From a phage: 64,000 nt of DNA. A program made the position numbers and the translations under genes. The notes under the pieces are model-generated. The model was given only the letters and a program-made list of their open reading frames with translations. It searched no databases and was not told the origin of the DNA. Below are positions 45,558 to 61,980 of the stretch, one piece after another (position 1 is the first letter of the stretch; each line of letters begins with the position of its first letter). The stretch lies in the NCBI GenBank assembly GCA_009015555.1, contig GCA_009015555.1_3613.1; one strand, written 5' to 3'.

Positions 45558-46274
45558 CTAAAGTTTTTCGAACACGGGCCACCAGATCCCGTTGTTTACC
45601 GTCGTCTGCAAGTAGGTGTTGTCGAACTGCACATACTTAAAGGGGTACGTTGCCGAGTCCGGGTAGTTAGTGTCAAACCTACCACGAATGAATGCCTTGG
45701 TGGTCAGGTTTCCTTTCACCATTGCCCCGCTTCTCGTAGACCCGGTGTAGTTAGGCTTCGTGACCTTCACCGACTCCGGGACAAAAAGATCATGAAAGTT
45801 GATGACCGCCTTTACCTGATCTGACAATGCCCACATATTGGGCACAAAAAGATCGTATTCCTGAACCGGAGTGAAGTCAGGAACATTTATGGTGGCAGAG
45901 GCTCCATAAACATCGTTGGGCACACCTGACATCAAGCGGACCCGGTAGGTATCCTGCCCAATGGTGATCTTTCTGTCCTGTGCTGTTGCTGCCACCCCTG
46001 GTGGGGTTATTCCAACACCGTCACTACCGAATACCGCCCCTTTGAGATAAACAGCCTGGTAATTGTCCCGTCCGATGGGATGGGAGGGGACAATAATGGT
46101 CTTGCCTCCCTTTGTGTAAATGAAATATTTAAAGGAAGCCGCCTTGGCAAGTATATTCGCCGGGGCAAGATCTGCAACAAGGTCAGCGTGTGATATGAAG
46201 GAACCTTCTGAGAGAATCCCTACATACGTAGCCTCCGCGCCGGGCTTAGAGGCAACAATCAACATTTCCTGCAT
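45558..46274 (-). CDS. N-tag family paralog C (N-terminus MQEMLIVASKPG), beta-rich hypothetical
   Basis: 238-aa ORF with RBS GGAGGG; shared N-terminal motif. Confidence 0.55.
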   Translation of the reverse strand: MQEMLIVASKPGAEATYVGILSEGSFISHADLVADLAPANILAKAASFKYFIYTKGGKTIIVPSHPIGRDNYQAVYLKGAVFGSDGVGITPPGVAATAQDRKITIGQDTYRVRLMSGVPNDVYGASATINVPDFTPVQEYDLFVPNMWALSDQVKAVINFHDLFVPESVKVTKPNYTGSTRSGAMVKGNLTTKAFIRGRFDTNYPDSATYPFKYVQFDNTYLQTTVNNGIWWPVFEKL

Positions 46275-46453
46275 CAGCCCTCCAGTTTAACCATGCACGA
46301 ACCGCTTTTCCATTTGCTTACGGTGCCCAGAACTTCGACCTTGGCCTTGTTCCCTTTGATCTGGCGGATGATCCCACCCTGAAGCTCATTGTAGCCCCAA
46401 TAAATAGCCACCTTGTCGCCCTCTTTAAGAGGGGTCCCACGATAATCAGTCAT
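46274..46453 (-). CDS. small hypothetical protein (59 aa), not in ORF track
   Basis: ATG overlapping preceding mini-ORF stop; stop overlaps start of paralog C and supplies its RBS. Confidence 0.3.
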   Translation of the reverse strand: MTDYRGTPLKEGDKVAIYWGYNELQGGIIRQIKGNKAKVEVLGTVSKWKSGSCMVKLEG

Positions 46454-46538
46454 TATGGTTCCTTATGTCCATGATGTACATGACAACACAAAGGAGGCCC
46501 ACGGCCCCCAAGAAAACTAAACCAAACCAATCCGGCAT
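46446..46538 (-). CDS. mini membrane peptide (30 aa), not in ORF track
   Basis: MPDWFGLVFLGAVGLLCVVMYIMD...; start overlaps stop of gene 46538..47005. Confidence 0.2.
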   Translation of the reverse strand: MPDWFGLVFLGAVGLLCVVMYIMDIRNHND

Positions 46539-47005
46539 CAGTCCACCTCAACAGGCTCGATGAAGTAGTTCTGGCCCTTCTTGACTTGCATGAAGGTCCC
46601 CTCTACCCAAGTACCTGAACCTTGAATACGTGTTTCCGAGATGTCATACTTCGTGTTTGGATCACGTTTTCTGTGAAGCAGTTGGAGAATCAACTCCAGA
46701 CTACTGAAGGAGATCTTGTATTCAAATCCCTCTTTGTCTTCAAAGACCGCCACCGCAGAACTCCTTCCTTTCTCTGTGTGAGAAAACTGGAGAGACATCT
46801 TGCGGGTTTCGTGCTCTATCTCTTCTACACGTTTGTTTTCCGAACCGGGCCGGAACATATGAACAAAGTCACAGAGTGGGAATCGGGCAGCATACACCTC
46901 TTCTGCTTTTGGTGTAAAAGCAAATCCCTCCCATCCTGTGAACCACTTCCCGCCTGACCCGGCTTCCGCCAAGGCAGGGTATGAACGTTTACGAAGTTTT
47001 CCCAT
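46538..47005 (-). CDS. hypothetical protein
   Basis: Track ORF 46538..47008 (GTG) trimmed to ATG 47005; RBS GGGAGG. Confidence 0.5.
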   Translation of the reverse strand: MGKLRKRSYPALAEAGSGGKWFTGWEGFAFTPKAEEVYAARFPLCDFVHMFRPGSENKRVEEIEHETRKMSLQFSHTEKGRSSAVAVFEDKEGFEYKISFSSLELILQLLHRKRDPNTKYDISETRIQGSGTWVEGTFMQVKKGQNYFIEPVEVD

Positions 47006-47958
47006 CACAAACCTCCCGGTAATTTGTATTGATAGATCGTCTTCGAACTATAACCAGATAGCCAGAAGAACAAGTCGCCCACCCTTAAACATGGGCAGTG
47101 GAACTGGTTTGTTGGGACAGAAGCTGTTGTTTTACTACCTGTCAAGATATCGAACTGGTTAAGTACCGTACTGCTTTGTTGGACTGTATATATAACCCCT
47201 TTCCATACGCAAGACGGCATATCATAAGGGGTAAATCCCGGGCTTGTAACTTGTACTGTTGAGATCTGAAGGTTTGTCAAATCCACACGGAGGACATCCA
47301 GATATGGAGAGCCGTCACCCTCGCTTGTGTTCTTTATTGAACCCCCTCCGGTTATATAAACAAACCCGCCCATCAAAGTGGCGTCCCCACCAGACACCCC
47401 GTGAGAAAAAGCACCGGAAAGAACTACGTCTTCCCAAGCCAAGCCATCTATCCGGCACCTGCGGATTGCATTGGATGAAAACCCGGTGGACTTGTAGACA
47501 TTGGCAATAGAGTACACGTAATCGTCATCTACGTAAATAGCTCCATAATCATAAGGCAAGGCGGGATAAGTTTTGTACACACCCGTCTCCAAGTTCAGGG
47601 ATTCGATTACCCCTGTCTTTGTCCTGCCTTGTCCGAAGTAAAGAACTCCCTTATGGAGATAACTGGCGGTATTCAACGGTATGGTTCTTCCAGCCACACC
47701 AGGGACCATACCTGAGTATGCCATGTCGCTCACATTGAAGGTGTGCAAACCATCTGCTTTCAGGACATAGATTTTTCCATTCCAATACCCGATCGCGACG
47801 GCTGCTGTGCTGGTAGGAGAAGAGCCTCCCAAAGTTCCACCACGGGATTGGCCCGGCATCATGGCGGCTGATGCCGACACTAATGCCTCGTCAGCATTAA
47901 CGTCATCCATGTCCACAGGCACCCCTTTCTTCCCTCCTGCCATTAATAACTCGATCAT
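47005..47958 (-). CDS. N-tag family paralog D: Kelch-like beta-propeller protein (N-terminus MIELLMAGGKKG)
   Basis: 317 aa; RBS GGAGGA; repeated G.IY..GG-type blades; shared N-terminal motif. Confidence 0.55.
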   Translation of the reverse strand: MIELLMAGGKKGVPVDMDDVNADEALVSASAAMMPGQSRGGTLGGSSPTSTAAVAIGYWNGKIYVLKADGLHTFNVSDMAYSGMVPGVAGRTIPLNTASYLHKGVLYFGQGRTKTGVIESLNLETGVYKTYPALPYDYGAIYVDDDYVYSIANVYKSTGFSSNAIRRCRIDGLAWEDVVLSGAFSHGVSGGDATLMGGFVYITGGGSIKNTSEGDGSPYLDVLRVDLTNLQISTVQVTSPGFTPYDMPSCVWKGVIYTVQQSSTVLNQFDILTGSKTTASVPTNQFHCPCLRVGDLFFWLSGYSSKTIYQYKLPGGL

Positions 47959-48149
47959 TATTCCTCCACCAACTCGCCCGCGCCGTTGTACCGAGTGTTC
48001 CAGTCCCTCAGCACGGAATCGTACCCGTACTCAGATCTCTTTTCTGCCCCGCACCAGCCGCAGGTTATTACGTGCCTGTCTTGATAATGGGTATCTTCCC
48101 AGTAATCAGGTTGCTTACCACAGAAAGGGCATGGTTTAATATCAGTCAT
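47958..48149 (-). CDS. Lar-family-like restriction-alleviation zinc-ribbon protein
   Basis: Track ORF 47958..48182 trimmed to ATG 48149 (RBS GGAG); MTDIKPCPFCG...CGWCG resembles the Lar-family CPFCG signature. Confidence 0.4.
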   Translation of the reverse strand: MTDIKPCPFCGKQPDYWEDTHYQDRHVITCGWCGAEKRSEYGYDSVLRDWNTRYNGAGELVEE

Positions 48150-48516
48150 CGGACCACTCCTTGTCGTACCCGGCATCTTCACGGGTCATAGCGATATGCG
48201 GGGCATCGCACCCGTCATACCAGTTATCGACAAACATTTTCTCGGACCCTTCTACGATGAACAGGCCCGCCTGCCGTAATTCCTCTTGCAGGTTGCCAAA
48301 CATATTATCGTTCTGGTCGAAGATCACCAGGCCTGCATCATACGACGGTCCGTCTTCATGACGGTAAACGACCATATCACCACTGTAAGTGATCTTCAGC
48401 TTGGAATCGATCTCGTCAAGCCTGTCGGAAACCTCTTGCCAAGAATCCGTGTGCAGATTGCCCAGCGGAGGGTCTAACAGTGCAATGACGCCCACGGTTA
48501 CACGTTGCTCGCTCAT
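48142..48516 (-). CDS. hypothetical acidic protein
   Basis: 124-aa ORF with RBS GAGAGGAG. Confidence 0.5.
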   Translation of the reverse strand: MSEQRVTVGVIALLDPPLGNLHTDSWQEVSDRLDEIDSKLKITYSGDMVVYRHEDGPSYDAGLVIFDQNDNMFGNLQEELRQAGLFIVEGSEKMFVDNWYDGCDAPHIAMTREDAGYDKEWSDD

Positions 48517-48531
48517 GAATACTCCTCTCTA

Positions 48532-49185
48532 TTAATCAAGAACAAATGGTGCCGTCGGCACTGAGAAATTACCGTCGTAACGGGCCACCTTGCTGATACG
48601 GAATTGGTCAAGCCCACCAAACATAGTTTGTTCGCCGAAGCCGATTCTTGCAAAACGGCTTACGTCACTCCACCCTCCGGAAGCAAAGGACGTGGTGGTT
48701 GGTGCCACTTTACCGTTCAGATATAACTTCGTGACTCCCCCTTTGCTCACAATAGCCACATGTGTCCAGTTGGAAAGAGGCCAGTAGTTGGTACTAAAGC
48801 TCAAATAATTCTTCTGGTCCTGAAGATAAACCACACTTTGGTAAACCTTGAGGCAACTCTGAGTACCTGTCCCAAAATACATCCACCAGGAAGAGGCAAC
48901 TGAAGAGTTTCTTGACCAAAATTCGATAGTGAACTCGTCCTCTGGTTTGAAGACGAGATCTGTTTTCTCTGTCGCCATCATCTCAAAATAGCTGGCAGTG
49001 TTAGTACAGTCAAAGTATTTGTTGTTGAATTTTCCGTAACTTCCGGTGCCTACTGTTGCTACTTTTGAAAATTGCCGGGTAGGCTTGGCAACATCAATAC
49101 CTCCCTTGTCTGCTTGCAGGAGAAGGAGAGTTTTATCTCCCTTCATGCCGCCGCCTGCACCAGCCGCCAATAGGATTTCCTGCAC
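48532..49185 (-). CDS. N-tag family paralog A: ConA/LamG-like jelly-roll protein (N-terminus MQEILLAAGAGGG)
   Basis: 217 aa; GTG start with AAGGAG; LamG-type pattern (W.HVAIV...LYLNGK...DQFRISKVARY). Confidence 0.6.
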   Translation of the reverse strand: MQEILLAAGAGGGMKGDKTLLLLQADKGGIDVAKPTRQFSKVATVGTGSYGKFNNKYFDCTNTASYFEMMATEKTDLVFKPEDEFTIEFWSRNSSVASSWWMYFGTGTQSCLKVYQSVVYLQDQKNYLSFSTNYWPLSNWTHVAIVSKGGVTKLYLNGKVAPTTTSFASGGWSDVSRFARIGFGEQTMFGGLDQFRISKVARYDGNFSVPTAPFVLD

Positions 49186-49195
49186 TTTTTACTCC

Positions 49196-49867
49196 TTAAT
49201 GATTGAAGTGGTAAACAGCCCGGGCAAACCCCTCTGGGGTCAGCGATCGTAGCTGTTTGGTCCTCTCCGACTTACCACCTAAAAACTTCCAGCCCCAGAA
49301 GCAGCCTATATGAGGCACAGGCTTCTTGTCAGGCATCACAAAGCCATTCCCTACCCAGAGGCAAGTTTTCTTTGTGTAGGCGTTCCTGTACGGCATTTTT
49401 GGGTGGTACGAGCCTTCAATCTGACTCAAGTACCCTCCATACTCGTAAGGGTCGAAATAATGATCCGGCTTGCGCCACAGCGTACTCATCTTACCCACCG
49501 GGTTCTCGACCATCCAAGGACAGCCAAAAACGTTAGCAACACGCTCTACCATTTTAGCATTATCTATCGACTCCATCAACTCCGATTTCGTCCGGGTATG
49601 CTTGGCCCCGGCTACAGACAGGTTGGTGCAGCTTGGAAATGCAAAGATAATGTCCGGCTTCGGAATACCCGCTTTGGCAACGAAGGCTTCGAAGTCTTCA
49701 TCGATCCAACAATTCACATACTGGATGTTGGGGTGCTCCCGGCGCAGTTCATACTGACCATGATCAGCGGTGTCTGCATTAAAGCAGAACACCTTCCAAC
49801 CATTCAGGGCGTACTCATACCCCATGAAACCAGACCCATCAAACAGGCTCCAGACGACTTTAGACAT
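49196..49867 (-). CDS. DNA cytosine-C5 methyltransferase-like protein (short, divergent)
   Basis: Track ORF 49196..49966 trimmed to ATG 49867; motifs LFDGSGFMG (motif I-like), FPSC (Pro-Cys-type), MVENPVG (ENV-like). Confidence 0.35.
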   Translation of the reverse strand: MSKVVWSLFDGSGFMGYEYALNGWKVFCFNADTADHGQYELRREHPNIQYVNCWIDEDFEAFVAKAGIPKPDIIFAFPSCTNLSVAGAKHTRTKSELMESIDNAKMVERVANVFGCPWMVENPVGKMSTLWRKPDHYFDPYEYGGYLSQIEGSYHPKMPYRNAYTKKTCLWVGNGFVMPDKKPVPHIGCFWGWKFLGGKSERTKQLRSLTPEGFARAVYHFNH

Positions 49868-50114
49868 TACCAACCTCGCCGTGAATTGTGCAAGGGACAA
49901 ATACATCACGTCCGAAACCATCGCGCATCTTAACTTTTTGGTAAGGGAACAGGATGTCGTCTTCATCTGCCGCGATCATGTTTTCGCCGTGTTCGATGTA
50001 AAAACGAAGCTGCCGGATCAGATAGATGGAATCTATACCGGAAGAGTCCAGCAGGTCCTCTTCGTCGTAATCTGCCATGATGCGCTGCTTATCCAGACGG
50101 ACCCAATATTTCAT
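49860..50114 (-). CDS. hypothetical acidic protein
   Basis: 84-aa ORF with RBS GGAGAGAA. Confidence 0.5.
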   Translation of the reverse strand: MKYWVRLDKQRIMADYDEEDLLDSSGIDSIYLIRQLRFYIEHGENMIAADEDDILFPYQKVKMRDGFGRDVFVPCTIHGEVGNV

Positions 50115-50290
50115 TGCATTCTCTCCAAAATGATCCCTGCCTCTTTGGCCTCTTTCACAGGCACATATCCACCATGCCAGTCAAGGATGAACTCCTTGCC
50201 CTGGCGCACGAAGATTTGGTAGCGTCCGTTAACCGTCAACGCCGGAACCTTGCGAGTTGTGCTGACCACTCTTACTGTACCACCCATCAT
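50111..50290 (-). CDS. small hypothetical protein
   Basis: C-terminal 59 codons of track ORF 50111..50461, starting at ATG overlapping stop of upstream membrane ORF. Confidence 0.35.
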   Translation of the reverse strand: MMGGTVRVVSTTRKVPALTVNGRYQIFVRQGKEFILDWHGGYVPVKEAKEAGIILERMQ

Positions 50291-50466
50291 AGCGTACCCC
50301 TCGCAATAAGTCCACCAAAAGACATCAGAACGGCGATAAAGTTGGTGGTAAACACCACCCGGCTCCAGATGCCGTCGCCATAAATCTTGGGCCAGTACAC
50401 CGCAGTTAACATGAAAAACCCATTGGTAATCAGGAAGATCAGGTCTAAAATATCGCGGCAACTCAT
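50287..50466 (-). CDS. small membrane protein (59 aa), not in ORF track
   Basis: Hydrophobic MSCRDILDLIFLITNGFFMLTAVYW...; ATGA overlap with upstream gene; preferred over the W/R-rich overlapping frame. Confidence 0.3.
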   Translation of the reverse strand: MSCRDILDLIFLITNGFFMLTAVYWPKIYGDGIWSRVVFTTNFIAVLMSFGGLIARGTL

Positions 50467-50804
50467 CGTTTAGCTCCTTTCACAGACACAACAACCAAGA
50501 ACTGGAATACCGCCAAGACGCCCATCAAGAATAACCCTGCGATAGTGGCAAAAAATATGAACGGTAAACCGTATACCGATGCCAAAACGCAACCACCGAT
50601 AAACCCAGCCACAATCACCTCAATGCCCTCCAAGATGAACATGGCTTCACATTTCTTGTACTGATCTCGTAAGATAAAGAACAGCGCCACTGCCGAGAAG
50701 GCTATGAGGTAAATAATTAGGGTTGTCGGTGAAGTGATGGGTTTCAGGATTTCCCACCACCAATCCTGTGCCGCCGTCATCAGCCCAATAATCCTGTCAA
50801 TCAT
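50463..50804 (-). CDS. membrane protein (3-4 TM)
   Basis: 113-aa hydrophobic ORF with RBS GAGG. Confidence 0.5.
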   Translation of the reverse strand: MIDRIIGLMTAAQDWWWEILKPITSPTTLIIYLIAFSAVALFFILRDQYKKCEAMFILEGIEVIVAGFIGGCVLASVYGLPFIFFATIAGLFLMGVLAVFQFLVVVSVKGAKR

Positions 50805-51073
50805 GATCCATACCTCGCTTCATAAAGGAAAGTGTCCAAATCTGTTTTGTTGTCCCAGCCCGGCTCGGAGACAGGCATCAGCCAATCTACGTTGAGGATC
50901 AGCATATCCCCTTTGCGGTCGAAGGACTCCCACCAACCGAACTCGTCGGCCTTGCTCAGGAAGACCATCTTCCCGTGGAACTCTTTTGGCCCGGCGTAGA
51001 CCAAGGCATACCCGCCGGAGAACAACGTCCCCTCGTGCAGGTTGCAAGGGTCTTTGCGTGAATCGTCAATCAT
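50801..51073 (-). CDS. hypothetical protein
   Basis: 90-aa ORF; ATGA overlap with upstream gene. Confidence 0.5.
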   Translation of the reverse strand: MIDDSRKDPCNLHEGTLFSGGYALVYAGPKEFHGKMVFLSKADEFGWWESFDRKGDMLILNVDWLMPVSEPGWDNKTDLDTFLYEARYGS

Positions 51074-51234
51074 TTACGTGGTTTCCTCTTTGAGGGTTGT
51101 GGTTCACAGACCCGCGCCCGGTAGCAACTGTACTCAACGTAGCGCCAGGTTTTCTTTAAGTGCTCGATCAGTTCTTTGAGATGTTCCTCGGTCCGGGCAT
51201 AGCCGCACACATGATAACAGTCCCCGACTGACAT
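51070..51234 (-). CDS. small Cys-rich protein
   Basis: C-terminal 54 codons of track ORF 51070..51351 from ATG 51234; CYHVCG...CYRARVC pattern. Confidence 0.35.
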   Translation of the reverse strand: MSVGDCYHVCGYARTEEHLKELIEHLKKTWRYVEYSCYRARVCEPQPSKRKPRK

Positions 51235-51275
51235 CCGGCACTTCACACTGTAGTGTGTTTCGAAGTTCTTGTCAA

Positions 51276-51416
51276 TCACTTCAACAACTCCCCTATCGCC
51301 AGCCCGGCGATCAGAAGCTCCAGCATACCAACCATCATTGCAATCACCCAAATCACCTCATCCACAGGTCGGCGACCAAAACAGTGTGCCAGCAGCGTCA
51401 TGAAAAATGTGATCAT
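51276..51416 (-). CDS. small membrane protein (46 aa), not in ORF track
   Basis: MITFFMTLLAHCF...VIWVIAMMVGMLELLIAGLAIG; ATGA overlap with upstream gene. Confidence 0.3.
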   Translation of the reverse strand: MITFFMTLLAHCFGRRPVDEVIWVIAMMVGMLELLIAGLAIGELLK

Positions 51417-51917: not shown

Positions 51918-51943
51918 ATAACCTCCTACTGGTTGATAAGGGG

Positions 51944-51972
51944 AGTTTACAGGGGTTTTATCGGGGAGTCAA
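51944..51972 (-). promoter_or_regulatory. sigma70-like promoter (TTGACT, 17-nt spacer, TAAACT)
   Basis: Hexamers on minus strand directly downstream of terminator. Confidence 0.4.
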
Positions 51973-51974
51973 AC

Positions 51975-51998
51975 GAAAAAAGGCCCCCGAAGGGACCT
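51975..51998 (-). terminator. rho-independent terminator
   Basis: GGUCCC-UUCG-GGGGCC stem (one G-U pair) followed by UUUUUU on minus strand. Confidence 0.5.
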
Positions 51999-52003
51999 TT
52001 TTA

Positions 52004-52522: not shown

Positions 52523-52540
52523 AATCACCTCGAAGTAAAT

Positions 52541-52555
52541 GGGGCCGAAGCCCCG
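52541..52555 (-). promoter_or_regulatory. GC hairpin with UUCG loop (GGGGCUUCGGCCCC), no U-tract
   Basis: Perfect stem immediately after primase-helicase stop. Confidence 0.4.
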
Positions 52556-52559
52556 TTAA

Positions 52560-54632
52560 TTAAAATGGGCAGTCATCATCCATTTCATCAGGCATGTCCG
52601 GGACTTCCGGGATGTCTGGGATAACGACAGGTTTTGTTTGAACAGGCTCCGGAGTTTCCTCCTTCGTCTGTTCCTCTTCCGGAACTTCCAGGCCCAGATC
52701 CTGCTGTTCAACCTGCTGTTCCTTGGCCTCTTCCTGTGCTGCCAGGAACTGCTCGTCCGCCGGAGGGATGTCATCATCCGTCAGGTCAGATCCGGTCTTA
52801 TCTTGGTTCTCCGGAGACAGAGGTTGTGCTGCACTTCCCGTCGGCTCCTGATAAGAATCGTTGCTCGGATCATGTTCCGGGTGGACCGCATACCACTCAC
52901 GGAGAGTTTCGTATGGACTGTCCAAGAACCCCTCTGGCGGTTCCAGATAATCACCTGTGTCGATGTCGTAGAACACCGGGAACTTACCAGCACGACCGTG
53001 CTTACGGTCATCCAACAGCACAAACCAAGAGGTGTTGCGCTGCTTCATTGGAAGCTCCGGGTCCTTATTACGCTCAATACCTACCATGTAGTAGGTGTTA
53101 CGCATCATTGCACGGGAACCAGCAAACTGTGCCGACTGAACCTGACCACCGAACTCGTGAGGCTTACCAGTCTCCGGCTTGTTCAGGTGACAGAAGCAAC
53201 AATACCAGAAGCCCAGTTCCTTCGCAAGTTTGGAGATTTCATCAGAGAAACGCTCCAACTCCACGTTCGCTTCGGATGCAGACATACCCTGCACCAGACG
53301 AGTGATCGGGTCAATGAAGATGTCCTCACAACCCTCTACGATAACCGCATGGCGGATAGCGCCCTTAACCTCGTCCCATACTGCACGACCGTAGTTGTTG
53401 TAGTAGATGATGTTGTCACCTACCTTGTCGGTAGCCTCAATCAGTTCTTCCTGTTTGAAGTAACCACGCTGACCCTCGAAGACTTCCTCACCCCAGATGT
53501 CCCGGTAAGTTCCGTCCTCTTGTGGGATCATCACCTTCTCTGCGTTCACGAAATCCTTGTGGTACAGCTTACCAGCGACCTTCTTACACGTGATCTCGTT
53601 CTCTTCCTCGAACTTGAACACTGCGGCCTTACGGCCCTCTGTACCGATGATGTGCTCCACAAGCTGGTTAAGCCACTCGGACTTACCCATCTTAACCCCG
53701 GCACCGACGAACATACCTTCCCCGAGACGACGGCCCAACGTCAGGCGCGTCATTGTAGGCCAAGGCCATTTCTTCCCGAGTTTAGGGATCTCGTGTGCCT
53801 TCTCACGGAACTGAGAGTAGGTCGCAAAGCCGTCCGGCACGTACTCTTTAGGCTTCATCGCTGCCCAGAAAAGCTGCTGCGCCAAGCCCTTATTGTACAT
53901 GTCACAAGGGTCCATGTCTTCAGGGATATCGACGACTTTCATCTGTGGGATGACAGAATACACTGCCGCCACGGCATCTTTACCCTTCATGATACCCTTG
54001 GCTTTCTCAGTTTCGTTCGCCCGGTCGGCGTCGAAAGCCACAATGATCTCTTCGAACTTACTCAGGAGCTTATAGTTGTTCTTCTGAGACAGGTTCTGTA
54101 CTGCGTTGGATGTGCCGTTGGAGATTGACACAACCGTGAAGTTAGGCTTACGGGCATTGCCGTCCTTCGATTTGTAGTTCTCGCGGAGAACCTGCCACAA
54201 AATCGCTGCATCGTACTCACCTTCGGTGATGAAGATCATACGCTTGGACGACTTGTTGGCACCTTCCAGGCCAAACAGATCACAGGCTACTGACTGGAAG
54301 CCGATGGTGCTGAAGTGGCCCTTCTGCTGCTTAGGGATGGTCAGGTCGCGCTTCTTAAAACCAACGATCTTTCCTTCCAAAGTATATGGAAAATAATGCG
54401 CTTCCGGCGTCATACCGTCCTTAGCAGACAGTTTTGTGCGAATACCGAAGCGTTCAGCCGTCTTCTCATCAATCCCGCGCTCTGGGATCGCCTTGAAGGG
54501 ATACGTCTTTACATCTTCAACTGTCTCTTCAACTCGCTGCACTCCGCCTCCAAAACCACGGGTGGTTGACGCCTTCGGGTTGGTGTACCCCGTCTTATAT
54601 CCACCGAACAACCCTTCACCAAATGTGCTCAC
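52560..54632 (-). CDS. DNA primase-helicase (TOPRIM primase domain fused to DnaB-like helicase)
   Basis: 690 aa; GTG start preceded by GGGAGG; FITEGEYDA TOPRIM-type motif; P-loop GAGVKMGKSE in C-terminal half. Confidence 0.75.
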   Translation of the reverse strand: MSTFGEGLFGGYKTGYTNPKASTTRGFGGGVQRVEETVEDVKTYPFKAIPERGIDEKTAERFGIRTKLSAKDGMTPEAHYFPYTLEGKIVGFKKRDLTIPKQQKGHFSTIGFQSVACDLFGLEGANKSSKRMIFITEGEYDAAILWQVLRENYKSKDGNARKPNFTVVSISNGTSNAVQNLSQKNNYKLLSKFEEIIVAFDADRANETEKAKGIMKGKDAVAAVYSVIPQMKVVDIPEDMDPCDMYNKGLAQQLFWAAMKPKEYVPDGFATYSQFREKAHEIPKLGKKWPWPTMTRLTLGRRLGEGMFVGAGVKMGKSEWLNQLVEHIIGTEGRKAAVFKFEEENEITCKKVAGKLYHKDFVNAEKVMIPQEDGTYRDIWGEEVFEGQRGYFKQEELIEATDKVGDNIIYYNNYGRAVWDEVKGAIRHAVIVEGCEDIFIDPITRLVQGMSASEANVELERFSDEISKLAKELGFWYCCFCHLNKPETGKPHEFGGQVQSAQFAGSRAMMRNTYYMVGIERNKDPELPMKQRNTSWFVLLDDRKHGRAGKFPVFYDIDTGDYLEPPEGFLDSPYETLREWYAVHPEHDPSNDSYQEPTGSAAQPLSPENQDKTGSDLTDDDIPPADEQFLAAQEEAKEQQVEQQDLGLEVPEEEQTKEETPEPVQTKPVVIPDIPEVPDMPDEMDDDCPF

Positions 54633-54808
54633 TTCTTACCTCCCTCTTTCGGAGATTCAACCATTGTGGCAACATAAATCGTACTGCCATTGGGGTTAGT
54701 TCCCACAGAAACAGACCCTTGCAAGGTGTAACCGTAATCCCTGATCCATTTTCGGATCTGGCGCTCTAACTCCACCGGGTGAGTATACACCAACAGTTTA
54801 ACTTCCAT
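54629..54808 (-). CDS. small hypothetical protein (59 aa), not in ORF track
   Basis: ATG overlapping upstream stop (TAATG); stop overlaps primase GTG start and contains its RBS. Confidence 0.3.
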   Translation of the reverse strand: MEVKLLVYTHPVELERQIRKWIRDYGYTLQGSVSVGTNPNGSTIYVATMVESPKEGGKK

Positions 54809-55083
54809 TAAAAACCCCCGTCTTCTTCCAAAAACGCACGTGACATTTCGGCATCACGAATTTGAGCCGAGATCTCAGCATAAATCACTTGACGGGGAAT
54901 GTCAATGTCCAGCACATCACCTTCGAAGTAGACGGAAACCGAAATGATGTCGAGGTAATCCTCTGCATCCCAGTCGCTTGCGGCGTTGGGAATGCCCTTA
55001 TACAGCATCACTTCGGCTTCGACTACAACTTCCTGTCCGAAATCCTTGTGAAAATATGGGAACTCTACAGTTGTGCTACGCAT
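54808..55083 (-). CDS. hypothetical acidic protein
   Basis: 91-aa ORF with RBS AAGGAG. Confidence 0.5.
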   Translation of the reverse strand: MRSTTVEFPYFHKDFGQEVVVEAEVMLYKGIPNAASDWDAEDYLDIISVSVYFEGDVLDIDIPRQVIYAEISAQIRDAEMSRAFLEEDGGF

Positions 55084-55118
55084 GATAACTCCTTATTGAT
55101 GATTTCTTAACTGATCTG

Positions 55119-55310
55119 TTACTTCTTACCGGAAATTTGGTCTTCTCTGACCTGTGTCTTGACTCCATCCGGCATTTCGACCAGATAAGCATTGCAGGTC
55201 AGGTATTCCTGTTGAAGCAGGACCTTACCTTCCCCGCGATAATCCCAGCGCTGATTGCCCTGGTCAAAGAGAACAACGTCGTTGATCTCATAAGCAAAAA
55301 CAGGTTTCAT
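55119..55310 (-). CDS. hypothetical protein
   Basis: 63-aa ORF with RBS GGAG; ATGA overlap with upstream gene. Confidence 0.5.
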   Translation of the reverse strand: MKPVFAYEINDVVLFDQGNQRWDYRGEGKVLLQQEYLTCNAYLVEMPDGVKTQVREDQISGKK

Positions 55311-55788: not shown

Positions 55789-55795
55789 TCTGACC

Positions 55796-55960
55796 CTATT
55801 CTGCTGCTCGGTTTCCACGGACTTCGATCTCCAGCTTAATTGCCGCCAACATTTCTTCCAGTTCTGCTTTGTTCTTCTCCACACGGCGAAGATCATCACG
55901 GCCCAGATCACGCAGGGCCAGAAGGTGACTCATGGACAGATTGCTCAGGTCTTTAGTCAT
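55796..55960 (-). CDS. small hypothetical protein
   Basis: Track ORF 55796..56167 trimmed to ATG 55960 with GAGGAG. Confidence 0.4.
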   Translation of the reverse strand: MTKDLSNLSMSHLLALRDLGRDDLRRVEKNKAELEEMLAAIKLEIEVRGNRAAE

Positions 55961-56381
55961 TGAGAGACTCCTCATATTTTTCCACCAGAGCATCAACAAA
56001 GTACGCATGGTGAACCCACGCAGATGCACATCCGTCTTTGTGAAGCTCTTCGGAGATTTCTCTACGAAGTTCTGCCGCAGGACCAACAATATTGCGGACG
56101 TGTTTGTCAAACGACTCCCAAGCGTTGGCCCGGCCCTCTTTGCCGGGGTCTCGTTTCGTCGTGTCAATTACGAAACAACCCTCTCCCCGGCGAAGCTCGT
56201 CGGAAGCAGAACGGTACATGGACCCGGTTTTACCGGAGAAGAAAACGGATTTCTCCGTCATCTTCGTGATCACTGCCATCTCGAATGGCTTGGCCCCGGC
56301 ATTTCCCCGGGAAAAGGCGATGTGGTCACCCACACGCGCCTCGATTCCGAAACAGTCCTTAATCACCACACACCTCAACAT
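55953..56381 (-). CDS. hypothetical protein
   Basis: Track ORF 55953..56465 trimmed to internal ATG 56381. Confidence 0.4.
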   Translation of the reverse strand: MLRCVVIKDCFGIEARVGDHIAFSRGNAGAKPFEMAVITKMTEKSVFFSGKTGSMYRSASDELRRGEGCFVIDTTKRDPGKEGRANAWESFDKHVRNIVGPAAELRREISEELHKDGCASAWVHHAYFVDALVEKYEESLND

Positions 56382-56577: not shown

Positions 56578-57935
56578 ACCTCACCTCCAAAAATTTCAGG
56601 GAATGTCTCATGATAGAACTTACGGACACCTTGGTCAACAATAATGTCCTTCACACGTAGGCGCTTCATCAGGCGAAGACCTTCGGTGCTCGTCGCTCGG
56701 GACAGCATAACATAGGCTTGGCCCGGCGTGAAGGTGCCGAAACCTAAATCAATGTTCACTTTACCCAGCGTCAGGCCCTGTGCTTTGTGTCCGGTGATAG
56801 CATAGCCCAATTTGAACGGGAACTGCAAGTATTTCCCGATCTCTTTGTCAACCAGTACGGTCTGCTTCTCCATCACCTTGACAGTCTGCTTGGTGCCGTC
56901 TTCCAGTTCGATCTCCTTTTCAACCTGGACCATCTTTTCTTCCGGGACCTGTGTCACGTTGGTCCACTCGTACTTGCCGATGTGGATCGGCTTTCCGTCA
57001 ATGTCCACGATGACAAAAGTCTTGGCGATTTTCTTGATGATCCCCACCGTACCGTTGACGTAATCTGGCTCCTTTTTCTTCTGGTCGTTGTCGTTAACAA
57101 CAATCATGACCTTCAGACCTTCTTTCAGGTTCAGAACTTCGTTGACCGGACGCTCCGGGAACTCGCCCGAGATCTTGGCTTCGAACACATGAGGCTGGGC
57201 CTTGATCTTCTCAAACTCCCGCTGGTTGATTTCCTCTGCGAGTTTGTTGGTGGTCGTTAAAGTCACCGCCCCTGGCAGGGCCGGGCCGAAACAGTGTTGG
57301 TTGAAGTAATCAACCGCCGCCCCGACGTTATTACCCACACGGATGTTGTTCAGGTGTTGAGCGAACACAGGATCAGACTGGCGGTGTACCTTCGGAAGAT
57401 ACGCATTGGTAAAATCCAGTTGGTTCCAAATATCCGAACCGAACGGGATTTCATTGCCGTGCAGTTCACGGAACATCGCCGTCTCTTCGCGCTTCAGAAC
57501 AGGCTTGATCTGGAAACCGTCGCCAAACATGATGACCTGAAGGCCACCGAAAGGCTTGTTTACCTTGCGGTGATAACGCAGCTTCATGTCGATCTCCCGC
57601 AGCTTGTCGCTACGAATCATGGAGATTTCGTCGAACACGATAGCGTCCAGCGCATTAGATGCCATCAGCATCGCAGGCTTCTTGGACTTCGCTTTGTAAT
57701 CTTCCTTGGTGGTAACACCAAACGTCAGACCAAAAGCCTTGTGAGCGGTGATCCCTGAAATGTTCAGCGCCGCAATCCCTGTCGGTGCAACGAACAGGAA
57801 ACTGTCAGCGAAGAACTCACGCAGAGTGGCAATCATCAAGCTCTTGCCAGATCCACCTGGCCCGGTGATGAACACGTTATCACCCGCCATGATGGCTCGC
57901 ATTGCTTCTTCGTTACCAATTACTGTTTTACCCAT
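56574..57935 (-). CDS. SF1B DNA helicase (PIF1/RecD/Dda-like)
   Basis: 453 aa; Walker A GPGGSGKS, Walker B VFDEISM. Confidence 0.8.
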   Translation of the reverse strand: MGKTVIGNEEAMRAIMAGDNVFITGPGGSGKSLMIATLREFFADSFLFVAPTGIAALNISGITAHKAFGLTFGVTTKEDYKAKSKKPAMLMASNALDAIVFDEISMIRSDKLREIDMKLRYHRKVNKPFGGLQVIMFGDGFQIKPVLKREETAMFRELHGNEIPFGSDIWNQLDFTNAYLPKVHRQSDPVFAQHLNNIRVGNNVGAAVDYFNQHCFGPALPGAVTLTTTNKLAEEINQREFEKIKAQPHVFEAKISGEFPERPVNEVLNLKEGLKVMIVVNDNDQKKKEPDYVNGTVGIIKKIAKTFVIVDIDGKPIHIGKYEWTNVTQVPEEKMVQVEKEIELEDGTKQTVKVMEKQTVLVDKEIGKYLQFPFKLGYAITGHKAQGLTLGKVNIDLGFGTFTPGQAYVMLSRATSTEGLRLMKRLRVKDIIVDQGVRKFYHETFPEIFGGEV

Positions 57936-58120
57936 TACGCCTCTGCCTCAAATTTGGTGGTGCCAATGATTTTGGCCTCACTGATTTCAATATTCGTGTG
58001 GCCTTTCTTTGCCAAACGGCTGGCCTTCAGTGTTGCCGCCTGCGGATCGTCAACTTTGGCGCGAACGCTTTGACCATAACCCGCATCGGATGATACCAGA
58101 AAAACAGACTTCTCTTCCAT
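57935..58120 (-). CDS. hypothetical protein
   Basis: 61-aa ORF with RBS AAGGGGAG. Confidence 0.5.
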   Translation of the reverse strand: MEEKSVFLVSSDAGYGQSVRAKVDDPQAATLKASRLAKKGHTNIEISEAKIIGTTKFEAEA

Positions 58121-58129
58121 ACACTCCCC

Positions 58130-58318
58130 TTAATCGTGAGCCAAACAAGCAGTGATTACAGTTGCCAAGAGGAACATCAAGGCTCCCCACCCCATCAAAT
58201 ACGGGACCTGGGATGAGAACTGTGCCATCATCTCAGGGAAAAAGAACTGTGCGCCCCAGCGGGCCGGGAATATCCAAACCAGCATGAATGTAATGAACAG
58301 AATGATAAGATTTCTCAT
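58130..58318 (-). CDS. small membrane protein (2 TM), holin-like by size and position
   Basis: 62 aa, hydrophobic; RBS AGAGGAAAAGG; start overlaps stop of hydrolase gene. Confidence 0.45.
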   Translation of the reverse strand: MRNLIILFITFMLVWIFPARWGAQFFFPEMMAQFSSQVPYLMGWGALMFLLATVITACLAHD

Positions 58319-58848
58319 GTCGCCTTTTCCTCTTTTGGTTTATAAAACACATGGTAGCCGATAGTGGCTGTTTTCGTAAAGAACTTTCTCCAGTATGGCT
58401 TGACCTTCTTCGTGTGGAAGTGAGTCGCACCATGTGTTGGGTCCAGCTTGTTGTACAATACCTCATTATTCCGGATCTTGTAAAGGAATCTCGCAATATC
58501 TTGTGCGACCATCCAAGACTCCCGATCCCTGACTGCATAGCCGTTTCTTGCCATTGTCCAGGAAAATTGTGCAGATTGATACACAACCTTCCTGACTGAC
58601 CCGGGATACCCGTCGTGCTTTAGCCTGTTCAGAGTAACAAATCCAACCGCCATCTGTCCACTGATATTTTCCCCACGCGACTCGAAATAAATATTGCAGG
58701 CCAGTGCGTTGACCGACGAGTCATTGTTTTTGCACACATGAACAACCGGGGCGAGCTTTTTCTTCGGTGCGTTATCTTTTGCCAAAGCAGATACTGGGGC
58801 GAAAGATAAAGCGCTGGCTGCGAATAGTGCAGCGATGCTCTTTTTCAT
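58315..58848 (-). CDS. secreted cell-wall hydrolase, SleB-type
   Basis: 177 aa; N-terminal signal peptide MKKSIAALFAASALSFAPVSALA; NIYFESRGE...GQMAVGFVTLNRL motif of SleB-type hydrolases. Confidence 0.6.
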   Translation of the reverse strand: MKKSIAALFAASALSFAPVSALAKDNAPKKKLAPVVHVCKNNDSSVNALACNIYFESRGENISGQMAVGFVTLNRLKHDGYPGSVRKVVYQSAQFSWTMARNGYAVRDRESWMVAQDIARFLYKIRNNEVLYNKLDPTHGATHFHTKKVKPYWRKFFTKTATIGYHVFYKPKEEKAT

Positions 58849-58897
58849 CCAAACTCCTAAATGAGAAAGGCCCAGTTTATCACTGAGCCTTTAGAAG

Positions 58898-59299
58898 TCA
58901 AGCCTTTTTGGAGGCTTGAGCGAGAACTCCCTTCTTAACATCTTCCCAAAGAGAATTGAGGAAAGGGTCGTTGGTGATCACGTCGGCATACCAAGGGCCG
59001 TAGATACGGTACACGGAATCGACGGTGATCGCGTACAAATGCCCAGAATGGACGGCAAGGCCAGTCACGTAGCCAGTACGCACTTGGGTCCCATCCTTAC
59101 CTGTCTTCCGGCGCTTCGCCTCATTGAACTCGATATAACCTGTCAATGTGACAATCTTCTCCGGGACCTGAAGATCCGGGAGTTTTTCGTGGCTAAGGAC
59201 CTGATTCCCAGATTTACATCCCTCCAGGCACAGATTTCCGCCGTACTTCTTCCCGTACTTACGGGCAAACTCAGCCATTTTGATCGTGGACAATTTCAC
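58898..59299 (-). CDS. hypothetical protein
   Basis: 133-aa track ORF (GTG start; alternative ATG at 59278 would give 8-nt overlap with macro gene). Confidence 0.45.
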   Translation of the reverse strand: MKLSTIKMAEFARKYGKKYGGNLCLEGCKSGNQVLSHEKLPDLQVPEKIVTLTGYIEFNEAKRRKTGKDGTQVRTGYVTGLAVHSGHLYAITVDSVYRIYGPWYADVITNDPFLNSLWEDVKKGVLAQASKKA

Positions 59300-59801
59300 T
59301 CTCCTTCAGAACATAAATGGTCACATCGAAGTCTCTCAGGCGACCTTCAATCATCCGAGATATGATACCCCAATCGCCACCTGCGAGTCCAGCCCCTATT
59401 TTTGGTAGCCCGATACGAAGGTCTTGGGTACTCATATCCAGAGTACGACACTTGGCATGGAGAGATACCGCCATTGCAGACAGGGCCGAACGCAATGCCC
59501 AGTAATCGAGGTCCATCTTACCCTCTCTGCGCCCGGTGAAGGTGTATTGACCGTACAGATTGTAAACCAGTAAACCATTTTTGCAGAAGGCCGACGACAA
59601 AGTTCCCAGTTTAGCCCGATCACCACGGGTGGTCATTTGGTCTGCCGTCCACGCTTCCGGAAAAGCTGACGCAATCTTTGGGGCAATACCAGACTTCATG
59701 GTATTCATGCAGTTACAGCAGTGGGCTATCACGTTTACCTCTCCAGCCTGCGCCGCAGAGATCAGATCGCCCACACGGTATGTCATTTTACCACAAGGCA
59801 T
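59271..59801 (-). CDS. macro-domain-like (ADP-ribose binding or processing) protein
   Basis: Track ORF 59271..59882 trimmed to ATG 59801; VNVIAHCCNCMNTMKSGIAPKIASAFPE near N-terminus and GLAGGDWGII near C-terminus resemble macro-domain motifs. Confidence 0.45.
   Translation of the reverse strand: MPCGKMTYRVGDLISAAQAGEVNVIAHCCNCMNTMKSGIAPKIASAFPEAWTADQMTTRGDRAKLGTLSSAFCKNGLLVYNLYGQYTFTGRREGKMDLDYWALRSALSAMAVSLHAKCRTLDMSTQDLRIGLPKIGAGLAGGDWGIISRMIEGRLRDFDVTIYVLKESEIVHDQNG
59785..59796 (-). promoter_or_regulatory. TTGTGGTAAAAT motif inside 5' end of macro gene (candidate internal promoter)
   Basis: Third exact copy of the 12-mer. Confidence 0.25.
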
Positions 59802-59802
59802 A

Positions 59803-60015
59803 TTAAAGTTCACCCCGCTTCGCCTTCTGGCACATCTGGAGAACGTCATAGCAAGACTGCTTGACGATCCACGGCTCGCCACGGTACAGGGTAATCAGGG
59901 TTCCCTTGCGGTCTTTCCCTTCTACTTCGGTCACCTGCGGGTGAAACTCCCGGATATTTGCAACATCGAGGCAGATTGGTTCTTCAGACGCTAGTTGGTT
60001 CAGGTATACGAACAT
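59803..60015 (-). CDS. hypothetical protein
   Basis: 70-aa ORF with RBS AGGAGGG. Confidence 0.5.
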   Translation of the reverse strand: MFVYLNQLASEEPICLDVANIREFHPQVTEVEGKDRKGTLITLYRGEPWIVKQSCYDVLQMCQKAKRGEL

Positions 60016-60023
60016 AAACCCTC

Positions 60024-60284
60024 CTACAGGTATTGATTTTCAAGCCACTGCGCCGCCTCATCAGGGGACTTGCAGTCTCGCTTTTCGTTGATGGTGAACC
60101 AGCCGTCAACACAATGACACGCCCAGTCCTCTTCATCCTCTTCCTCAGCACGTTCTTGAACCTCAACGTGCCAAGTGCCGTCCCAGTTCTGGTCGATAAT
60201 TACCTGAACCTCATTGTGGAGTTCTTTTTCCACACGGTCAGCAACTTCATTGAACTGATCCATAATATCAATTTCATTTTCCAC
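60024..60284 (-). CDS. hypothetical acidic protein
   Basis: Track ORF 60024..60290 (TTG); GTG at 60284 has AAGGAGA upstream. Confidence 0.45.
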   Translation of the reverse strand: MENEIDIMDQFNEVADRVEKELHNEVQVIIDQNWDGTWHVEVQERAEEEDEEDWACHCVDGWFTINEKRDCKSPDEAAQWLENQYL

Positions 60285-60651
60285 TTTCAATCTCCTTCAG
60301 TTTGAGAGACAGAGCTTCAACTTCCCTCTTGAGGTCCTCAGCCAACAGCGTTGTCCGGGACCACTCTCGGGCTTTCTCCATGAGTTGGCGACCAATAGCG
60401 AGCGCCTCAGTGGCGCACACAATTTCACCTTTGCTGTAACGAACTTTCACAGTGCTGTTGTATGGAACATCACACCAACCGACCGCCCCAAGGTTAGTGT
60501 AGTGGCTGAATTTGTACGGCCCCCACACCTTCCCCGTCTTTTGGTTAAAGACCCAGAAGTCATCACCCCGTTTCAGTTGCGGGTTCCAACTTTTGTCGAT
60601 CTCTTCCTGATAGCGATAATCGGTCGGTTTGTATTCAGGACGTCTTGACAT
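60274..60651 (-). CDS. hypothetical protein
   Basis: 125-aa ORF with RBS GAGAAGG. Confidence 0.5.
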   Translation of the reverse strand: MSRRPEYKPTDYRYQEEIDKSWNPQLKRGDDFWVFNQKTGKVWGPYKFSHYTNLGAVGWCDVPYNSTVKVRYSKGEIVCATEALAIGRQLMEKAREWSRTTLLAEDLKREVEALSLKLKEIESGK

Positions 60652-61096
60652 GTTTGCCTTCTCCGGTCCCCATGCAATTCAGTTCTCGGCCTGTACGCAT
60701 CTCTAAAAATGCCTTCAGGTCCCCAAACTTCCCTGTTGCCACCGCTCCTGCTGGCGCTCGGTTGTAGTCCCAAGTGTCCTTCGCCTCCTCGATATCACCA
60801 ACCCGAGTTTCGACCTGCTTACGGAATTTGTATGCAGAGAACTTCGACTTGATTTTTCTGGGCGGTACATAACGCATCGTATCACAGAACCCACCGTGCA
60901 GACGGACCTTGTTCTGGTGCAACTTAATGCAGCGTTTTGTGTACTCTTCGAACTCCACTTTGAACGCCGGGTGAATCAATTCTTCAGGGGCCGTAATCGT
61001 CACTTCACGGTAATTGCCGTTACCGTCATTGTGGTAAACGATCTCGGGCTTACCCGCCAGAACTGTCACCTCAAAATCTTCAATCGTAAATTTCAT
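60635..61096 (-). CDS. hypothetical protein
   Basis: 153-aa ORF; 17-nt overlap with downstream gene. Confidence 0.5.
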   Translation of the reverse strand: MKFTIEDFEVTVLAGKPEIVYHNDGNGNYREVTITAPEELIHPAFKVEFEEYTKRCIKLHQNKVRLHGGFCDTMRYVPPRKIKSKFSAYKFRKQVETRVGDIEEAKDTWDYNRAPAGAVATGKFGDLKAFLEMRTGRELNCMGTGEGKHVKTS

Positions 61097-61139
61097 CTAA
61101 AAAGCCCTCTCTGTTTCCAATGAGGGCAGATTACATGAC

Positions 61140-61328
61140 TTACTGGTCGGTGTCAACCTTTTCGATAAACACAATGTCGCCATACTTCAATTTACGACGT
61201 TTGTCTTCGTCCTGCTCTTGGTTCAGGTTGAATGAACCCTTACCATTAGAACGACGCCAGCCAGATGCTCCCGTGAACTGCTTCAACAGGGCCGCAAAGT
61301 CTTCTTTCGTCACTTCAACCTTGTGCAT
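61140..61328 (-). CDS. hypothetical protein
   Basis: 62-aa ORF overlapping upstream stop. Confidence 0.45.
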   Translation of the reverse strand: MHKVEVTKEDFAALLKQFTGASGWRRSNGKGSFNLNQEQDEDKRRKLKYGDIVFIEKVDTDQ

Positions 61329-61651
61329 TACAGGCTCCCCGGCAGTACCAGTTTAGGACCCTCGCCCTTCTTAGATTCACGGATACGCTCACGAACGTAT
61401 ACCTCGATGTCCGTCGGACGCCACAGTTCAACAGCGACAACCTGGAATCGACCAATGTGGGCACCCGGTTGTTTGTCCATGTGGTTAGCCATCAGTTTGG
61501 CGCTGTCTTCGTCAGCAAACACAGCTTTCACCACAATCGGATGACCGTCATCGGTCTGCCCGAGGCTCATGGAAGGCACATTGTGCCCGGCGGCGGTGTC
61601 GTCGATTGCATACATCAGGGTGGTGCCGCCAACGTTATTAGTCAGTTCCAT
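61328..61651 (-). CDS. hypothetical protein
   Basis: Track ORF 61328..61708 trimmed to ATG 61651 with GGAGA. Confidence 0.45.
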   Translation of the reverse strand: MELTNNVGGTTLMYAIDDTAAGHNVPSMSLGQTDDGHPIVVKAVFADEDSAKLMANHMDKQPGAHIGRFQVVAVELWRPTDIEVYVRERIRESKKGEGPKLVLPGSL

Positions 61652-61856
61652 CAATTTTCTCCACTTTGCTACCAAAAGAGGCCATAAAACAACGGCCCTC
61701 GTCTCCACCGAACGGGATCATCACGGTCCCGCCGATGATAATTGCATCATCACTTGCCAGGATCGGCTGGCTCATGATCGGCTTGCCGAACAGGTCGCAA
61801 TCACACACGTATTTGAACGTGTCGCCAACCTTGATGTCTTGTGCCAACACTTGCAT
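61638..61856 (-). CDS. hypothetical protein
   Basis: Track ORF 61638..61949 (GTG, no RBS) trimmed to internal ATG about 61856. Confidence 0.3.
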   Translation of the reverse strand: MQVLAQDIKVGDTFKYVCDCDLFGKPIMSQPILASDDAIIIGGTVMIPFGGDEGRCFMASFGSKVEKIDGTD

Positions 61857-61860
61857 CCGA

Positions 61861-61980
61861 TTACCCCACGCAGACTTCGTACCAGCCGCATTTTGTGCAT
61901 TCACGAACAAAAGCGTGTACGCTGCCCTTGGTAATGAACTTATGCTCACAATTTTGCTGCTTCACAGATTTTACTGTCAT
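61861..61980 (-). CDS. small zinc-ribbon-like protein (39 aa)
   Basis: Internal ATG of track ORF 61861..62052 giving MTVKSVKQQNCEHKF...CTKCGWYEVC; ATGA overlap with upstream gene. Confidence 0.3.
   Translation of the reverse strand: MTVKSVKQQNCEHKFITKGSVHAFVRECTKCGWYEVCVG

Follow-up and report, generated by a model that had tools for sequence, protein, structure and literature searches.

The 64,000-nucleotide (nt) phage contig GCA_009015555.1_3613.1 (GenBank assembly GCA_009015555.1; the window is this whole stretch) carries, between positions 46274 and 61980, six open reading frames (ORFs) of 30–59 codons, here called O1 to O6, whose frames are conserved among related phages and are under purifying selection at the amino-acid level. 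We read these six, together with a seventh tiny ORF at 55796..55960 (O7), as genuine small genes that encode proteins in a CR3-like Certrevirus and lie within long minus-strand polycistronic early/middle transcripts of the replication region, and put the probability of this reading at about 0.92. The 16-kb region that holds them is 97% identical, across 97% of its length, to Cronobacter phage CR3 (Certrevirus, Vequintavirinae; a myophage), and about 30 related records with 80–96% identity come from phages of Cronobacter, Enterobacter, Klebsiella, Pantoea and Pectobacterium. The locus is syntenic with 10 Certrevirus genomes, and Logan contig SRR10058857_50 (63,960 nt) has the same gene order as the window, whose genome is a CR3-like mosaic. 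Beyond about 30 kb the rest of the window has a negative GC skew and minus-strand genes; between 45.5 and 64 kb these genes form an unbroken train encoding DNA polymerase, primase/helicase, helicase, a methyltransferase, endolysin and many short hypothetical proteins. The paper on the CB7 genus describes the corresponding part of Certrevirus genomes as an early/middle region in which short hypothetical ORFs and promoters of sigma70-like type are frequent (PMC7344957).

The six ORFs had been proposed in a preliminary description of the window, and each is found on the minus strand at the coordinates given there, opening with ATG and closing with TGA (TAA in O6). Writing overlaps as negative and spacers as positive distances, and giving the upstream junction first, they are O1 (46274..46453, 59 residues, −8/−1 nt), O2 (46446..46538, 30 residues, −1/−8 nt), O3 (50287..50466, 59 residues, −4/−4 nt), O4 (51276..51416, 46 residues, −4/−4 nt, with an ATGA overlap at both ends), O5 (54629..54808, 59 residues, −1/−4 nt) and O6 (61861..61980, 39 residues, −4/+4 nt). 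The preliminary description held that every one of them fits its gap with overlapping stop and start codons; 11 of the 12 ends do overlap, by 1, 4 or 8 nt, but the 3' end of O6 is followed by a 4-nt spacer. These junctions are the normal spectrum of the train, in which −4 occurs at 14, −1 at 7 and −8 at 6 of the 43 junctions. With the six ORFs taken out, the train is left with five unexplained gaps of 120–263 nt.

The evidence that these frames are coding comes mainly from relatives. The homologous region was taken from ten distinct relatives and searched by local tblastn without a complexity filter. Each ORF was found in 7–10 genomes, that is, in all those that carry the segment, down to 38–57% amino-acid identity, and every frame was open, with start and stop codons at equivalent positions and the overlaps retained. 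All length differences were in-frame, including a 13-codon insertion in O1 (phiTE, CR9 and POP15), a five-codon difference in the tail of O5, and single-codon insertions or deletions (indels) in O3, O4, O5 and O6. Frame conservation in relatives was the check on which the preliminary description had staked its proposal, and six of six frames were conserved. In codon alignments, the great majority of pairwise differences were at third positions. Nei–Gojobori ratios of nonsynonymous to synonymous substitution (dN/dS) ranged from 0.01 to 0.37 where dS was unsaturated, apart from a single O2 comparison, and the excess of variation at third positions, with each variable column counted once, was significant at p = 8e-4 to 2e-16. 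We also constructed an annotation-free substitution map from ten relatives anchored on the window, in which the counts at codon positions 1/2/3 (the phase) were 13/14/69 for O1, 12/3/26 for O2, 27/12/39 for O3, 27/14/75 for O4, 22/15/60 for O5 and 4/3/35 for O6, again with a significant third-position excess for each ORF (p = 9e-4 to 1e-14). The third-position fraction was 0.50–0.83 in the six ORFs, and mostly 0.49–0.79 in 38 accepted neighbouring genes. Coding-potential scoring, likewise suggested beforehand as a check, agreed with the comparative evidence and was weaker than it: by codon-usage log-odds the claimed frame outranked the other five in every ORF except O2. Finally, the allele swaps seen for O4 and O5 start and stop at the ORF borders; O1 and O5 of the window are of the KaOmega type, and O2, O3, O4 and O6 are of the CR3 type.

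Open frames are plentiful in a genome as dense as this one, with 275 ORFs of at least 25 codons in 20 kb, and the codon-usage scores of O2 and O6 are slightly negative, as might be found if the small ORFs were chance open frames in non-coding spacers. However, the frames are open in all relatives and tolerate in-frame indels only, their third-position periodicity is strong and their dN/dS low, and when the gaps were mononucleotide-shuffled, an ATG ORF covering at least 90% of the gap arose with P = 0.004–0.018 per gap. The true intergenic spacers of the train also look different. Those at 51918..52003, 52523..52559, 58849..58897 and 61097..61139 (minus strand) hold GC hairpins, T-runs and promoter-like hexamers instead of ORFs (for example AAAAAGGTCCCTTCGGGGGCCTTTTTT, followed by TTGACT-17-TAAACT) and are probably operon boundaries, with terminator and promoter, inside the train. 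We therefore find an origin of the six frames by chance hardly credible. As to the promoters themselves, the published Certrevirus consensus TGTTGAC-N-TATAAT (PMC7344957) had no exact match in the window, and a generic promoter scan was uninformative on operon boundaries.

Several points weigh against the coding interpretation. The pairwise comparisons among relatives are phylogenetically non-independent, which is mitigated by counting variable columns once. Tandem mass spectrometry (MS/MS) of CB7 was limited to virion proteins, and the case for the six ORFs is one of sequence comparison. Searches of Pfam, NCBIfam and PDB sequences returned nothing above the cutoffs beyond a DUF7205 match, and fold searches against the PDB with the models of O5 and O6 gave no significant match. 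O2 has 30 codons only, it is outscored by another of the six frames in single-sequence coding potential, and one of its dN/dS values is 0.72; in addition, a conserved GC hairpin inside O2 could contribute to its nucleotide conservation.

In three places a small ORF stands in for the N-terminal part of a longer ORF of the track, as the preliminary description had pointed out: O3 for 50111..50461 (116 residues, TTG start), O4 for 51070..51351 (93 residues, TTG start) and O6 for 61638..61949 (103 residues, GTG start), all on the minus strand. By the longest-ORF rule one would accept these long ORFs as the genes and dismiss O3, O4 and O6 as overlapping artefacts, and gp096 is indeed annotated in a form extended over O6 in phiTE (phiTE_045), KaOmega (gp104) and ExiM (UNA02706), at 86–88 residues. 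The substitutions within the overlaps decide otherwise. They peak at the third position of the small frame in every case, with phases of 27/12/39 for O3 against 39/27/12 in the 116-residue frame, 20/11/33 for O4 against 33/20/11 in the 93-residue frame and 3/1/26 for O6 against 1/26/3 in the 103-residue frame. Since the long frames have their maximum at codon position 1 or 2, the long ORFs are over-extended at their N-termini. Consistently, the translated extensions are rich in Arg, Trp and Cys and appear out of frame, an impression already gained from their composition at the first reading. Shorter starts are available to all three downstream genes: a conserved ATG in an ATGA overlap with the O3 stop, a GTG (window and POP15) or ATG (CR8, CR9, KaOmega, ExiM and DU_PP_IV) downstream of O4, and a start 1–4 nt past the O6 stop. 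Moreover, CB7 does not have O6, and gp095 and gp096 abut there at the short start. That the TTG- and GTG-started ORFs are the real genes is accordingly extremely improbable.

The six ORFs were missed only because of the ORF-length filter of the first stage. That real small genes were hidden by a 60-residue cutoff was rightly suspected, and standard gene finders call the four that were looked up: automated calls on public contigs, Logan contigs among them, hold the exact products of O2 on 2, O4 on 13, O5 on 2 and O6 on at least 24 contigs. The implied novelty has to be given up, as homologues of all six are already coding sequences (CDSs) in at least one GenBank relative each. O1 and O3 are annotated in CR3 (gp061 and gp070) and in nearly all other relatives; O2 in ExiM_F1M1E, PcCB7V and POP15; O4 in ExiM, KaOmega, POP15 and CB7, its annotation being absent from CR3, CR8, CR9 and DU_PP_IV; O5 in CR8, KaOmega, ExiM, phiTE, PcCB7V, POP15 and DU_PP_IV; and O6 in PcCB7V, POP15 and P7_Pc. 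The annotated Certrevirus CDSs (CR3 gp061/gp070, ExiM UNA02663, KaOmega gp79/gp83 and CR8_079) are direct orthologues with the same position, length and overlaps, as are PcCB7V QQG33401 and POP15_070, _084, _088 and _115, and nothing essential differs between them and the small ORFs. The six ORFs are already known and are ordinary small phage genes. Their value lies in annotation: the CR3 reference and several further Certrevirus records lack O2, O4, O5, O6 and 55796..55960, in the early regions of phages one is led astray both by the 60-codon filter and by the longest-ORF rule, and a substitution-phase analysis with few relatives settles such cases cleanly. The genes enlarge the pool of uncharacterised phage miniproteins, and nothing about them challenges current understanding.

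As for how they are expressed, translation of the small ORFs would most likely be coupled to that of their neighbours. Their junctions measure −8, −4, −1 or +4 nt and are conserved, and the upstream cistron carries a Shine–Dalgarno (SD)-like motif, for which the duplex energies lie between −6.2 and −9.5 kcal/mol (background mean, −3.6). Because a start codon near or within the preceding stop, together with an embedded SD motif, enables terminating ribosomes to re-initiate on the next cistron, a start 1–8 nt within or 4 nt past the preceding stop, with the SD-like motif in the 3' end of the upstream gene, could serve each small ORF in this way. Coupled overlapping genes of phage and bacterial operons have the same 1-, 4- and 8-nt overlaps (ATGA, TGATG) and upstream SD motifs; textbook examples are the trpE/trpD and trpB/trpA junctions of Escherichia coli and the late genes of lambda and T4. 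In contrast to these known operons, we infer the coupling of the small ORFs, as well as their expression and function, from sequence alone. The likely products would be small inner-membrane proteins (O2, O3 and O4), a DUF7205 domain protein (O1), a compact beta-alpha-beta-beta protein (O5) and a putative zinc-binding miniprotein (O6). Small proteins of this kind are typical of host-takeover and accessory functions in phages. The preliminary description had called several of the ORFs hydrophobic, and this fits O2, O3 and O4, whose grand average of hydropathy (GRAVY) is 0.88–1.34 and which have one or two hydrophobic stretches of 15–25 residues.

Overlapping junctions throughout, and an O5 stop that in all genomes overlaps the non-ATG (GTG) start of an essential gene, might also be taken to mean that the small ORFs are relay cistrons, which pass ribosomes downstream and make functionless peptides. 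A pure relay would leave the peptide unconstrained, so that the conserved amino-acid sequences count against this explanation: dN/dS is well below 1, O4 keeps its AHCFGRRPV motif and O6, across phage families, its CxH..RECxxCG motif, and the fold model of O5 is confident. We consider it very unlikely that the cistrons act as relays only, and continue with the six ORFs as protein-coding genes.

For two of the tiny genes a role beyond that of filler is conceivable, O6 as a portable miniprotein family and O5 as a partner or translational gatekeeper of the primase/helicase, although we hold this view only tentatively and rate it well short of an even chance. O5 matches phrog_17825 (E = 4e-21 across 2–51/55), and homologue-cluster searches with it returned 3 clusters only. 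It lies directly upstream of the primase/helicase gene (52560..54632, minus strand, 690 residues, phase 113/72/628), whose GTG start is within the O5 stop, and this GTGA junction is identical in 11 genomes, covering both allele classes of O5. The gene order gp078–O5–primase/helicase is also found in Salmonella phage SSBI34 and E. coli phage W70. At the nucleotide level O5 of the window is 59–61% identical to CR3, CR8, phiTE and others (59% to CR3) and 97% identical to Klebsiella phage KaOmega; its flanks, 54333..54628 in the primase gene and 54809..55083 in gp078, are 97–99% identical to CR3. The simplest reading of the arrangement is that ribosomes ending O5 would re-initiate at the weak GTG start of the essential replicative primase/helicase. 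With a precise cassette swap that preserved the GTGA junction, O5 may be a conserved partner or gatekeeper of the Vequintavirinae primase/helicase.

The AlphaFold2 (AF2) model of O5, which is predicted to be soluble, has a mean predicted local distance difference test score (pLDDT) of 89.9 and a beta-alpha-beta-beta order of secondary structure. The same order is found in dodecins, flavin- or calcium-binding dodecamers, one of which was the best PDB match. However, neither the fold nor the sequence match to dodecin was significant (E = 0.1, template modelling score (TM) 0.46, root-mean-square deviation (rmsd) about 7 Å, 9% identity), and Pfam gave no match; these figures are no evidence that O5 belongs to the dodecin family.

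O6 is the most constrained gene of the region, with dN/dS of 0.01–0.05 and the region's highest third-position fraction, 0.83. Its maximal ORF has 63 codons (61861..62052), and the internal ATG at 61980 chosen in the preliminary description is the conserved start, since a stop interrupts the upstream extension in phiTE, 10 codons before this ATG, and in POP15, 5 codons before it. O6 is a homologue of PcCB7V QQG33401, POP15_115 and P7_105. Outside the genus, homologues were found as a 40-residue ORF in Salmonella phage SSBI34 and as 38-residue ORFs in about 11 records of T7/T3-like podophages, including Citrobacter phage SH2 and Shigella phage ESh3; the gene is unannotated in SSBI34 and in some T7-like records such as SH2. 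C11-x-H13 and C28-x2-C31 are invariant in the Certrevirus, SSBI34 and T7-like homologues, within the shared motif C-[DE]-H-x-F-[IV]-x-K-G-x6-RECxxCG[WY]. In the T7/T3-like phages the gene directly follows gene 5.5 and precedes the next small gene, with 1-nt overlaps. This distribution indicates that O6-type genes would have spread horizontally between unrelated phage families. The 5.5–5.9 cluster of T7-like phages encodes small host-takeover proteins, gp5.5 being an H-NS binder and gp5.9 a RecBCD inhibitor, and the O6-family ORF lodged there is small, early and sporadic as O6 is; however, T7 gp5.5, gp5.7 and gp5.9 have no sequence similarity to the O6 family, and adjacency is the only link.

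The family is very small. An exhaustive HMMER search with O6 against 1.8 billion representatives retrieved two further miniprotein clusters, a 353-residue repeat protein and one spurious low-complexity match. At 50% identity three clusters of 37–40-residue CxH...RECxxCG proteins make up the family; a homologue-cluster search with the 40-residue POP15 homologue returned 2 clusters only. The 353-residue protein is membrane-anchored and carries repeats of CEHEYVTKYD.TNHW.ECSKCG (unit CEHxYVTK...HWxECSKCG), which resemble the O6 core; five of them were matched by the search. Judged by this resemblance, the O6 motif may be derived from, or convergent on, a repeated zinc-knuckle module.

The preliminary description had called some of the ORFs zinc-ribbon-like. 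For O6, motif and topology fit this label, as two conserved Cys/His knuckles flank beta-hairpins, and the AF2 model, of moderate confidence (pLDDT 66), is a three-stranded antiparallel sheet (strands 11–18, 21–28 and 34–38). Zinc-ribbon proteins (Rpp21 and NrdR) also head the Foldseek list obtained with this pLDDT-66 model, but their matches are non-significant (best E = 0.44, to Rpp21) and the Pfam matches lie below the cutoff; the label is therefore supported without being proven. Like the zinc-ribbon mini-domains of Rpp21 and the NrdR N-terminus, O6 combines two knuckle-like motifs, CxH and CxxC, with an antiparallel sheet, although the similarity stays at E ≥ 0.44 and zinc binding by O6 is putative. 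These features would fit a portable, zinc-dependent protein that inhibits some conserved host factor or defence component of enterobacteria. With its cross-family spread and strongest constraint, O6 would be a reasonable candidate for functional work, as would O5 with its likely coupling to the replicative primase/helicase.

In CB7, which does not carry O6, the gp095/gp096 homologues adjoin the gp097 homologue directly. O2 was likewise not found in CB7 and DU_PP_IV. In this comparison the tiny genes behave as dispensable modules that would be gained or lost singly.

O2 shares 8 nt with O1 and 1 nt with gp062. Its peptide, MPDWFGLVFLGAVGLLCVVMYIMDIRNHND, has one hydrophobic segment (single-pass) and a short acidic/polar tail. 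The ORF is open in 8 relatives with ATG and TGA, its phase is significant at p = 5e-5, and dN/dS is 0.05–0.33 apart from the outlying comparison given above. Codons 10–16 contain a hairpin (46493..46509, minus strand) of the form GGGGGCC-GTN-GGCCUCC, followed by a U-rich stretch. One could hence argue that O2 is kept mainly as a terminator- or attenuator-like RNA element and not as a protein: there is a terminator-like match at 46509..46493 on the minus strand, and the stem of 7 bp, including 6 GC pairs, is retained in 8 of 8 distinct sequences, with nearly invariant third positions in the stem and a loop third position that varies freely (G, C or T). However, no covariation or compensatory change was found in the stem among the 8 sequences, CR3 and CR8 carry a stem-weakening G-to-A change, and the U-tract is poor, the tail TTTGTGTTGT being interrupted and weaker in phiTE, CR9 and POP15. 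The protein, in turn, bears its own marks of constraint: the peptide MPDWFGL..FLGAVGLLC is invariant despite synonymous changes outside the stem, the C-terminal tail swaps only to other polar or charged residues, and the relatives retain the ATG start, the TGA stop and the two overlaps. Retention of O2 mainly for its RNA is unlikely in our judgement. As far as the stem pattern goes, the hairpin may impose a second, RNA-level constraint (an attenuator, terminator or processing site) beside the protein constraint, and the two could coexist.

Among the remaining ORFs, O1 is a homologue of CR3 gp061, annotated in 9 of the 10 relatives, predicted to be soluble and conserved at dN/dS of 0.02–0.16. 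It matches Pfam DUF7205 (E = 1.9e-13, 50.7 bits against a cutoff of 27, model positions 7–72/128) and phrog_2112 (PHROG E = 3.6e-27). O3, the homologue of CR3 gp070 (dN/dS 0.11–0.21), has two hydrophobic segments and matches phrog_14732, 'membrane protein' (E = 3e-39 across 1–59/59). O4 has the invariant AHCFGRRPV motif followed by its hydrophobic segment, and is a homologue of KaOmega gp79 and of CB7_70 ('putative membrane protein'). Its SD motif is GGAGGA (ΔG −9.5), and its nucleotide identity of 98% to CR3 and 74% to CR8 reflects allele-swap behaviour. Pfam, PHROG and NCBIfam searches found no family match for O2 and O4. Adjoining O4, the gp073 homologue (51070..51279, minus strand, 69 residues) has a clear coding signature (phase 27/22/74); it is a 202-nt gap in the automated calls on four public contigs, where the smaller O4 is called.

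O7, the seventh tiny gene (55796..55960, minus strand), encodes a charged, helix-rich protein of 54 residues, a homologue of CR8_084, with a phase of 12/6/39 at a depth of 10, and overlaps gp082 by 8 nt. It escaped the first reading because it lies in-frame inside a 123-residue TTG ORF (55796..56167). O7 is annotated in CR8, ExiM, KaOmega, POP15, DU_PP_IV, CB7 and PcCB7V, not in CR3, and has been gene-called as a 54-residue product on a source-like public contig. A further tiny ORF at 55076..55192 (38 residues) was rejected, as it overlaps gp079 off-frame and its phase signal is that of the gp079 frame (6/3/18).

Precomputed Pfam labels on public contigs place DUF7205 on a 137-residue product, which we equate with gp082 (55953..56366), and on two products, of 67 and 145 residues, towards the 3' end of the region. 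By direct hmmscan the match was recovered for O1 only, not for gp082 or for a 67-residue ORF of the window, 63046..63249. O1 and this 67-residue protein share an N-terminal motif, [DF]xGxxLKEGDxVA (BLASTP E = 2e-5). On the other side of O1, a 238-residue gene (45558..46274, minus strand) lies between the DNA polymerase gene and O1. It is present in KaOmega (gp63), PcCB7V and CB7 and absent from CR3, CR8 and ExiM, and in other relatives its slot is held by an HNH endonuclease. The CB7 homologue, CB7_55, is labelled 'structural protein, MS/MS confirmed', an odd location for a virion protein.

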